Source: an uncultured archaeon (GTDB taxonomy: Archaea > Asgardarchaeota > Thorarchaeia > Thorarchaeales > Thorarchaeaceae). Taken from it: a stretch of DNA of 23,618 bases. The translations under genes were made by a program, and so were the position numbers. How positions within the stretch are numbered: the first letter of the stretch is position 1; the number at the start of each line of letters is the position of its first letter. Where the stretch lies: NCBI GenBank assembly GCA_964473825.1, contig CAYYQL010000037.1, positions 1 through 23,618 of the forward strand, in the 5' to 3' direction. This document shows positions 11,281 through 12,796 of this stretch, piece after piece. The notes below the pieces were generated by a model. The model ran no database searches, was not told the DNA's origin, and worked only from the letters and a program-made list of their open reading frames with translations.

Positions 11281-11396
11281 TCCCTAAGACACCTAGACAA
11301 GTAGTCGCCTTCTGTGTGATTTATCAACTTTGCGAACTACTCAACTGCGCACCGGACTCCGACGTGCACATAACGTTATTCATACCACGGATTACG

Positions 11397-11403
11397 TTTA
11401 TAA
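11397..11403 (+). promoter_or_regulatory. TATA box (TTTATAA) for the candidate selenoprotein gene
   Basis: Canonical archaeal TATA ~45 nt upstream of ATG 11448. Confidence 0.55.
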
Positions 11404-11447
11404 CGCCCGAGAAGAAGGGATGGCCAGTAAATGAAACGTGGTCTCTA

Positions 11448-12251
11448 ATGACAGAAATCATGGAAACTGGCCGACGCTTCCCGCGACTGGATATTGCGTA
11501 TGCAATCGAATGCATGTCATGAGGCAAAGGTCGCACAGGTTTCTACATCAAGAGGCTGAGTTACATAGACTCCGATTCAATGGAACAATTGCTCCTCAAG
11601 AATCCAGCTGATAATCAGAGTGGGTTCTGGGTGTCATACAAATACAATGGTCAGCTAACCAGGGTGAGTTCCACAGAGACCGAGTGCTTCTCAGATGTCA
11701 AGACGGCACCCGACGGCGAGAAGCTCATCGTGACCATGGACCACACCCCTCTCGATTCGGTCGAGAGAGTCATGCGATTCAAAATCGAGCTCTGGAGCTT
11801 CGAGAAGCCCATGCTATTCATCAAGCACACATCGACGAACATGAGTAAGGCTCCTATCGAAGATCTGAAGCTCTTCAATCTCATGGACTTCGACCTTGGG
11901 GGACCAACTAGCTACAAAGATGACATGGGAGCATTCGATGCCAAAAGCGGAGTCATGCGGGTCTGTGATGACACACCACTGTGCGTTGCTCTGACATCTA
12001 GACCCACTCCCGATGGCTGGGAGCTCTCGGCCCCAACGAAACTGCGACTCACCCAAACTGACCGCGAACTCAAGAATAATCTTGAGCTTGGCCCACAAGA
12101 CGTTGCCACAGGGTTGCAATGGAACTTGGGCAACATCGATGCAGGCGAATCGAAATCAGTGTCCCTGGTGATAACGGTCGGACAGAATACTGAAGAGGCG
12201 GATAAGCTCCTTCCAAAGGCTTGGGAGGAGTTCGACACGAAGATACGATGA
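11448..12251 (+). CDS. Candidate selenoprotein (267 aa; CxxU with Sec at TGA 11520-11522), probable beta-sandwich (mutarotase/glucoamylase N-domain-like) fold
   Basis: MTEIMETGRRFPRLDIAYAIECMS-TGA-GKGRTGFYIKRLSYIDSDS joins in frame to the 11580-12251 ORF; upstream TATA and downstream SECIS-like hairpin. The 11580-12251 portion is clearly coding either way. Confidence 0.72.
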
Positions 12252-12285
12252 CGTCGCTGCGTAAAGCACTGCAGCACCGACTGAG
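12248..12285 (+). ncRNA. Eukaryote/Asgard-type SECIS-like cis element
   Basis: ATGA(12248-51)-11 nt-AAA(12263-65)...TGAG(12282-85); stem GTC/GAC plus GCTGC/GCAGC; flanking GAAGAT(12239-44)/ATCTTC(12303-08). Confidence 0.6.
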
Positions 12286-12328
12286 AAAGGGAAGCCCCCT
12301 TTATCTTCTACGCGTGCGCCCGCTGGAG

Positions 12329-12366
12329 AAAAAAGCCAAGACGGGGATTCAGAAGACTCCCCGTCT
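12329..12366 (-). terminator. Hairpin plus T-run terminator of the wHTH gene
   Basis: AGACGGGGA/TCCCCGTCT 9-bp stem (12339-47/12358-66) followed on the minus strand by GGCTTTTTT, just after the stop at 12371. Confidence 0.6.
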
Positions 12367-12370
12367 CAGT

Positions 12371-12796
12371 TCACTTGCTGTGTTGCATTTCAAGGTGATG
12401 CACCAAGAGTCGTGCAGAAGAGCTTAGTTCAGCTCTACGCCCTCTGTTCTCGGAATCACCACCATCCAACAGCCCCAAGTCCATTAGCGACCGCAAGTTC
12501 CACTTCGTAGTGGAGTACGGCACATCCGTTCTCCTTGAGACCATGTCAGCCAAGGCCGTCACTGTCACATCATGATGACGTAACAGTGAGGCACTGACTC
12601 TCAGAACCAGTTTCTGAGTGTCGCTCAACCTGGCTTCTGCTAGCTTGAAGAACGAAGCTACAACACTCTCGAAGGAAGGCATCTGATAGAAATAGCTGTC
12701 TCCTAAGACCTCACGGTCACTGGAGAACACATTCACCTCTGGGGTGAATTTCATACTCACCGTTTCGGTCGCTGACCCGACACTGATGGGCATCAT
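12371..12796 (-). CDS. Winged helix-turn-helix DNA-binding protein; start uncertain (12796, GTG 12730 or ATG 12682)
   Basis: LSDTQKLVL..TVTALADMVSRRTDVPYSTTKWNLRSLMDLGLL..AELSSSARLL wHTH pattern. Confidence 0.8.
   Translation of the reverse strand: MMPISVGSATETVSMKFTPEVNVFSSDREVLGDSYFYQMPSFESVVASFFKLAEARLSDTQKLVLRVSASLLRHHDVTVTALADMVSRRTDVPYSTTKWNLRSLMDLGLLDGGDSENRGRRAELSSSARLLVHHLEMQHSK

Follow-up and report, generated by a model that had tools for sequence, protein, structure and literature searches.

A candidate selenoprotein gene of Thorarchaeia carries, at its stop codon, a probable eukaryote-like SECIS element with a predicted three-way junction

Results

A probable SECIS element at the end of an incompletely annotated gene

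We analyzed a stretch of 23,618 nucleotides (hereafter the window). It corresponds to contig C37 of a Thorarchaeia (Asgard) genome, a metagenome assembly of 3.27 Mb. Positions 12235-12319 of the window very probably constitute the SECIS element of the gene at 11448-12251, a Thorarchaeia selenoprotein gene of which gene callers annotate only a part. On comparative sequence grounds, the hairpin at 12239-12308 is almost certainly a genuine SECIS element, of the eukaryote-like kind known from Asgard archaea, and by its sequence features it classes as type I, as described for Asgard archaea. What is new is the host gene family, predicted to occur in selenocysteine form only, and a three-way-junction layout that is backed by covariation. 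The features are collected in Table 1.

Table 1. Predicted features of the gene and its element, with further loci; positions are those of the window unless a genome or locus is named
Feature	Position	Strand	Remarks
Predicted selenoprotein gene, 267 codons plus stop	11448-12251	+	Translation with TGA as U; 28 full-length orthologues
In-frame UGA, predicted to be read as selenocysteine (U25), motif C-M-S-U-G	11520-11522	+	Same codon in orthologues; both flanks conserved
Closing (C) helix, 5' strand GAAGAU	12239-12244	+	In the last sense codons; pairs with 12303-12308
SECIS core AUGA	12248-12251	+	UGA 12249-12251 is the stop of ORF 11448-12251
Helix II, 5' arm GUCGCUGC	12253-12260	+	All 8 pairs with compensatory changes
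Apical loop GUAAAGCACUGCA, 13 nt	12261-12273	+	Conserved adenines; possible 2-bp ministem GC/GC
Helix II, 3' arm GCACCGAC	12274-12281	+	C12277 opposite C12257 is the single mismatch
3' GA of the core quartet	12283-12284	+	GA in 23 of 28 orthologues
Side hairpin (third helix): AAAGGG 12286-12291, loop AAGCC, CCCUUU 12297-12302	12286-12302	+	Covariation; equivalent in vhuU
Closing helix, 3' strand AUCUUC	12303-12308	+	Covariation
Second candidate selenoprotein gene with element	G000:C9:25053-25411 (locus L029:1554-1912)	-	In-frame TGA; R1 match
Distant homologue loci	L127, L128, L141-L150		Genomes G044, G054, G065, G073, G074, G100, G115, G148, G163, G205

The host gene and its predicted protein

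The ORF that begins at ATG 11448 contains a single internal TGA (11520-11522) when TGA is read as U, and gene callers shorten it to a 223-aa ORF starting at 11580. The gene is isolated between one divergent and one convergent gene, its neighbours are uninformative, and the element lies in the gap to the convergent gene, which measures 119 nt. DNA contigs of four runs were compared with this stretch: the likely source run was identical, and among the differences listed none fell at the TGA or in 12239-12308, except for a G inserted behind 12303 in one relative. No RNA run was listed for the stretch.

AlphaFold, given a 27-sequence alignment, returned a model with a mean pLDDT of 89.3, in which an all-beta fold is followed by a C-terminal helix and U25 is placed in the turn of the first beta hairpin. 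Foldseek matched the model to the N-terminal beta-sandwich domains of GH94, GH149, GH161 and GH15 enzymes and of GalM-like proteins (TM 0.6-0.7, E about 1e-8). The predicted fold is not that of thioredoxin. Searches of Pfam and NCBIfam with the host protein found no family, and a database of 5.8 billion proteins held only truncated forms labelled 'hypothetical protein', covering at most 88% of the query. A full-length Cys orthologue was found neither in 201 Asgard genomes nor in that database. Thus the element cannot be equally present behind Cys forms, an outcome that the initial annotation of this DNA had named as contrary to its reading of the element.

Layout of the element

Read from 5' to 3', positions 12239-12308 run GAAGAU, ACG, AUGA, C, GUCGCUGC, the loop GUAAAGCACUGCA, GCACCGAC, U, GA, G, AAAGGG, AAGCC, CCCUUU and AUCUUC. 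The spacing that the initial annotation had given for the motif (AUGA, 11 nt, AAA, 17 nt, GA) is exact, with AUGA at 12248-12251, the AAA of the loop at 12263-12265 and GA at 12283-12284. The folding energy of this 70-nt stretch was -19.5 kcal/mol (z = -2.61), and 3 of 200 shuffled sequences folded equally well. In the host genome helix II is continuous over 8 bp with one C-C mismatch at 12257/12277; the same position is a G-C pair in a 96%-identical relative, and in G002 the helix is free of mismatches. Because the side hairpin follows the 3' GA and the closing helix pairs the last codons with sequence beyond that hairpin, the base of the element would form a three-way junction. The side hairpin AAAGGG/CCCTTT and the closing helix GAAGAT/ATCTTC, which had been proposed as a possible branched base, are both present in the sequence and both covary across orthologues.

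Two further observations concern the sequence around the element. Readthrough of the terminal UGA would add 10 codons before a second stop, UGA 12282-12284, in which the 3' GA of the core is embedded; since the base preceding that GA varies among orthologues, the second stop has not been conserved. Between the SECIS and the stop codon of the convergent gene (12371-12373), at window positions 12340-12365, lies an 8-bp GC-rich hairpin (GACGGGGA/TCCCCGTC) with a 10-nt loop, which may be a shared 3'-end signal.

Conservation and covariation across Thorarchaeia orthologues

A six-frame search of 60 relatives recovered full-length orthologues in 28 genomes of the same family, with protein identities ranging from 96% to 34%. 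Exactly one in-frame TGA is present in each of the 28; it falls at the same codon in the 27 orthologues aligned from the start, and in the remaining one, whose alignment begins at residue 10, it is in register. The flanks of the TGA are conserved (consensus ..PRLD..Y.VEC.S-U-G.GR.GFY..), as is a start codon 24 codons upstream of it. The 3' element was found at the same place in all 28 orthologues. Conservation of the motif behind TGA-containing orthologues, a lack of which the initial annotation had named as refuting, is therefore complete (28/28), and it is accompanied by compensatory changes.

The covariation check that had been suggested for the orthologue 3' ends gave a clear outcome for helix II: RNAalifold recovered the 8-bp helix unaided, and compensatory changes occur in each of its eight pairs. 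Helix II was paired in 90.6% of alignment cells, compared with 22-49% when the strands were slid against each other. For the three-helix structure the corresponding values were 81.4% and 40-49%, and its covariation score of 0.577, compared with at most 0.17 for slid partners, was reached by none of 500 shuffles; these covariation controls leave part of the phylogenetic dependence in place. The side hairpin is paired in 79% of cells, with changes on both strands in four of its five modelled pairs; for the closing helix the corresponding figures are 70.8% and four of six. The inner pairing GCUGC/GCAGC of the initial annotation did not hold up, being paired in only 53% across orthologues vs 90.6% for the continuous helix; shifting it by 3 columns restores the continuous helix, which pairs better. 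The GCUGC/GCAGC pairing is peculiar to the host genome, in which the C-C mismatch at 12257/12277 weakens the real helix. The alternative register once offered, with GA at 12279-80, would place both bases inside the 3' arm of the helix and is unsupported.

At the level of single positions, [A/G]UGA is invariant among orthologues (24 ATGA, 4 GTGA) and serves as the stop codon in 27 of the 28. The 3' core site reads GA in 23, UA in 3 and AA in 2, and the A and G that follow are invariant. The loop opens with GUAAAGC in 19/28 orthologues, and the AA of its AAA is invariant. The GC/GC ministem in the loop is paired in 89% and barely covaries.

Two orthologous loci depart from this pattern. In G006:C21 (locus L058:1412-1497, minus strand) the tail is frameshifted, and the GUGA core no longer lies in frame; the ORF runs on for four codons beyond its usual end, to a UAA inside the GUAAAG loop, and the element is intact. 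The same orthologue has Ile in place of the Cys of the CxxU motif. At G007:C8:20044-20515 only residues 1-82 and 218-261 match, on adjacent stretches, which suggests that this orthologue has an internal deletion; the SECIS behind it is intact and scores 66 bits.

Rarity in the genome and association with in-frame TGA codons

The loose published pattern for Asgard SECIS elements matches 12 times in the 23.6-kb window and at 1417 start sites in the genome; it is so common that matching it means little. A strict descriptor, by contrast, is rare. It asks for [AG]TGA, N, an 8-bp helix in which no more than one mismatch is tolerated, a 12-14 nt loop whose first bases are [GC]TAAAG, and finally N and GA. 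It has four matches in the 3.27-Mb genome vs none in 10 simulated genomes, and the four are the host element, two vhuU copies and C9:25123.

A covariance model built from the element (R1) matched two places in its own genome, the host site (77.9 bits) and C9:25053-25136 (49.2 bits). In 40 relatives, R1 matches with E below 0.001 comprised the orthologue 3' ends, one site in G023:C471 and four C9-type sites, and nothing else. The C9 ORF comprises 87 codons and encodes a membrane helix at its N terminus; its single in-frame TGA (..DNRT-U-ELYEYID..) is kept in four relatives (..DNRT-U-[DE]xYEYID..). The ORF ends in a TAG stop 27 nt before its element (27-33 nt in relatives), and the R1 scores for C9-type elements range from 49 to 62 bits. 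A search of NCBIfam with the C9 ORF found no family, and the ORF is unrelated to the host gene. The strongest functional argument is thus that one and the same RNA follows two ORFs that are unrelated and have nothing in common but a conserved in-frame UGA, and the association of the element with in-frame-TGA genes is exclusive among the placed genes.

The site in G023 (G023:C471:3451-3535, locus L125) matched R1 at 50 bits. No ORF of at least 60 codons with an in-frame TGA ends within 150 nt upstream of it, and the site may belong to a third gene family. A generalised three-way-junction descriptor, run over the whole genome, returned vhuU twice, the host element and C14:16131; it is weaker evidence, because it was written after both families had been seen. 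The C14:16131 match was rejected as a SECIS, as it lies inside an ordinary coding region.

Selenocysteine machinery and known selenoproteins of the host genome

The host genome encodes a tRNA-Sec (61 bits), which ARAGORN confirms. Adjoining it is a PSTK-like gene, whose match lies below the curated cut-off at an E-value of 2e-38. Genes for SepSecS and SelB are located on contig C3, that for SelB in the region of C3:97201-98109 and that for SepSecS next to a gene for an Asgard-only protein, and the SelD gene is at C8:32609-33535. In the host genome no in-frame TGA was found in SelD, in eight FlpD/VhuD matches or in the HdrA matches (on C3, C56, C43 and C30). Thus, of the known families, only vhuU is available as a comparator. 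As a separate observation, the selenoproteome of the host genome appears to consist of vhuU (two copies) and two unlisted families, a small set to justify a whole Sec machinery.

Distant homologues in other Asgard families

A phylum-wide search of 201 genomes revealed weaker homologues in three other Asgard families. The ORF could be placed in ten distant loci. In all of them the nearest stop upstream of the matched ORF is a TGA, and conserved coding sequence precedes it (contexts include ..NNICIT-U-DNRGY.. and ..RMLCSK-U-ITEADL..); both observations rule out a reading of these homologues as TGA-less. Because TGA was found in every distant locus placed, selenocysteine is predicted to be kept across the whole superfamily, with no Cys form in the genomes searched.

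In the family that we denote f9, seven homologues were examined. Five of them have a TAA stop, followed 13-32 nt downstream by a separate element composed of AUGA-U, 8-10 bp, an A-rich loop and then U-GA or U-AA, like the published lokiSECIS. By eye, the remaining two f9 homologues have a similar element. In the two other distant families, a simple scan found no element within 200 nt. Together, the f9 arrangement and the out-of-frame core of G006 indicate that AUGA need not overlap the stop codon, and that the overlap represents an economy of the Thorarchaeia branch.

Alternative explanations

We considered three other accounts of these data. An improbable one is that the conserved 3' structure has another role, such as 3'-end formation, mRNA stability or an L7Ae-type kink-turn, and that UGA 11520 is otherwise decoded or the gene is split. 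The element does lie in the 119-nt gap between convergent genes, where terminators or stabilising hairpins are expected, no Rfam or vhuU SECIS model scores it, and kink-turns serve many uses in archaea. A terminator or stabiliser, however, needs no invariant [A/G]UGA, GA and loop adenines; the GC hairpin at 12340-12365 is the better terminator candidate; and the element occurs only behind conserved in-frame-TGA ORFs, in two unrelated families and in vhuU.

Still less probable is a leftover, non-functional SECIS copied from another selenoprotein gene, with the upstream ORF a pseudogene split by a stop. That the closest relative of the element in the genome stands behind a different ORF (C9) does suggest copying of SECIS elements, and G007 keeps its element behind a gene with an internal deletion. 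A dead gene, however, would not keep its TGA, coding flanks, start codon and element down to 34% identity with compensatory changes in the RNA, and the predicted fold is confident across the TGA. The least likely account, in which AUGA, AAA and GA come together in a hairpin by chance, can draw on how often the loose pattern occurs (12 times in the window) and on the match of the generalised descriptor to ordinary coding sequence at C14:16131. Against it stand the four genome matches of the strict descriptor, compared with 0 in 10 simulated genomes, and the conservation and covariation of the element across 28 genomes; the comparative data already refute it.

Discussion

Proposed mechanism

In the mechanism that we propose, the two GA dinucleotides would pair in sheared fashion to build the core of a kink-turn, and the folded element would recruit the archaeal SelB-GTP-Sec-tRNA(Sec) complex to ribosomes on the host mRNA, so that UGA 11520, which lies 726 nt upstream, would be read as selenocysteine. 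The terminal UGA would be read as stop, since no ribosome can arrive there without first unwinding the closing helix and the core. Mariotti et al. (PMC4989117) likewise propose that a UGA too close to the element acts as a stop, because the structure cannot form under the ribosome. The claim of the initial annotation that this element recodes TGA 11520 gains support from the 28/28 conservation of the TGA, from the covariation and from the Sec machinery of the genome; binding of the element, its kink-turn geometry and the recoding itself we infer from these sequence data. The further claim that the terminal TGA serves both as stop and as kink-turn core fits the sequence, with the kink-turn fold a prediction, and it has a published precedent in the overlap of AUGA with the UGA stop of Lokiarchaeota VhuU.1 (PMC4989117).

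Novelty and significance

Published surveys describe seven Asgard selenoprotein families, all identified through homology to known families (PMC4989117, PMC11227280). Neither the host gene family nor the second small family is listed among Asgard selenoproteins in the portions of these surveys available to us, which include a 2026 review, and the same portions of the literature contain no side hairpin or three-way junction as a conserved, covarying part of a SECIS element. Already published are the SECIS class, the G[U/G]AAA variant of Thorarchaeia, the lower-stem pairs and the AUGA/stop overlap (PMC4989117, PMC11227280).

These data indicate that a search that starts from the SECIS element uncovers more selenoproteins than surveys by homology. 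Here it yielded a 267-residue protein, modelled as a beta-sandwich, with selenocysteine predicted in every homologue examined and no cysteine form seen, and it brought up a further candidate selenoprotein, which is small and has a membrane anchor. In public annotations every member of the main family is truncated. Furthermore, the covariation-backed three-way junction provides a sharper search model for Thorarchaeia, and the element offers a concrete RNA with which to address how archaea without SBP2 recognise eukaryote-like SECIS elements, a question that bears on the origin of the eukaryotic selenocysteine system.

Comparison with known SECIS elements and kink-turn RNAs

The type I model of PMC11227280 comprises a core 5'-[A/G]UGA ... 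[G/A]A-3' with one nucleotide between each half and the stem; a stem of 7-15 bp with at most two mismatches; a loop of 8-20 nt that carries conserved adenines close to where it begins; and a location between -30 and +600 nt relative to the 3' end of a gene that has a UGA in frame, together with a fold below -5 kcal/mol. The host element has the core ATGA-C ... T-GA, a stem of 8 bp with 1 mismatch and a 13-nt loop, GUAAAGCACUGCA, in which AA is invariant; it overlaps the stop of a TGA-containing ORF and folds at -19.5 kcal/mol. The Sec machinery that accompanies the class is also present, as tRNA-Sec, a PSTK-like gene, SepSecS, SelB and SelD. Like the Asgard type I elements of both papers (PMC4989117, PMC11227280), it has AUGA and GA flanking the stem, an A-rich loop and a place directly behind the gene, and the start of its loop fits the G[U/G]AAA reported for Thorarchaeia frhA/vhuU (PMC11227280). 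Where the lower part is concerned, pairs in the lower stem of frhA/vhuU elements have been published, and these papers model a lower stem and an internal loop, whereas the host element has a side hairpin and a three-way junction (PMC4989117, PMC11227280).

Within the host genome the likeness to the SECIS of the known selenoprotein, a comparison that the initial annotation had called for, is borne out: the host element resembles vhuU in its core and geometry, in a loop that starts GUAAAG, in the overlap of AUGA with the stop codon and in its branched base. We collected vhuU elements from 19 Thorarchaeia genomes (the host copies are at C19:36412 and C40:22125). The vhuU SECIS follows the same plan as the host element. 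In both, AUGA is the stop codon and a spacer of one nucleotide leads to a helix of 7-9 bp, capped by a loop of 12-14 nt with (G)UAAA(G). N-GA-S-A comes next (N-GA-C-A in vhuU), and then a side hairpin whose loop measures 5 nt; the closing helix, 6-8 bp long (8 bp in vhuU), takes its 5' strand from the coding sequence. The vhuU structure is paired in 93% vs 26-48% when slid, and in the host genome the vhuU loop and the loop of the host element both begin with GUAAAG. The two differ in the loop of the side hairpin, which is GCAAG in vhuU and mostly AGCAC in the host-gene family.

The sequences are so different that the two covariance models do not detect each other. The vhuU model (R2) scored the host element at 12.6 bits (E 0.21) in the wrong register, and R1 scored vhuU at 7.6 bits; the likeness to the vhuU SECIS thus rests on the shared descriptor and layout, which were partly defined post hoc. 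Family-specific sequence, coding bases included, dominates both models, and for that reason this failed cross-detection neither supports nor refutes the assignment. In the window no Rfam family reached the gathering score, and within 11300-12500 no SECIS family matched even at E up to 10. SECISearch3, like the eukaryotic and archaeal SECIS models, is reported to miss all Asgard SECIS elements (PMC4989117, PMC11227280); since the same failure is published for the whole group, we read the Rfam and cross-model results as uninformative and not as negative.

The eukaryotic SECIS (SECIS_1, bound by SBP2) shares with the host element the AUGA...GA quartet, the unpaired adenines at the top, the position in the 3' UTR and a presumed action on a distant upstream UGA. 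The stem of the host element is shorter, however, and a predicted three-way junction takes the place of helix I and the internal loop. SBP2 was not detected in Asgard archaea according to PMC4989117 and PMC11227280. An assignment to the euryarchaeal GAA_A SECIS, which has a lower stem, a 5'-GAA/A-3' bulge and a short GC-rich upper stem, was rejected: its loose pattern touches only the side hairpin, with G-U pairs and one mismatch, and the conserved structure has no bulge of this kind.

Kink-turns are defined by tandem sheared G-A pairs beside a three-nucleotide loop, and a k-junction is a kink-turn that includes a third helix. The base of the element invites comparison with the k-junction of the TPP riboswitch (PMC4005666), which likewise has a C helix, a loop and G-A on one strand, with a third helix in the other, non-bulged strand just after the GA. 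The likeness is one of strand topology read from secondary structure, with which the sequence and helix topology of the host element are compatible. We therefore put forward tentatively, as an idea that we consider rather doubtful at present, that the SECIS elements of Thorarchaeia are k-junctions; that the third hairpin, with its three G-C pairs and conserved 5-nt loop, and the coding-strand closing helix have been selected in at least three gene families; that the third hairpin is a second recognition site for SelB or an Asgard SECIS-binding factor; and that the host gene belongs to a Sec-only family across Asgard archaea. If this were true, the k-junction architecture would be a structural intermediate between euryarchaeal and eukaryotic elements.
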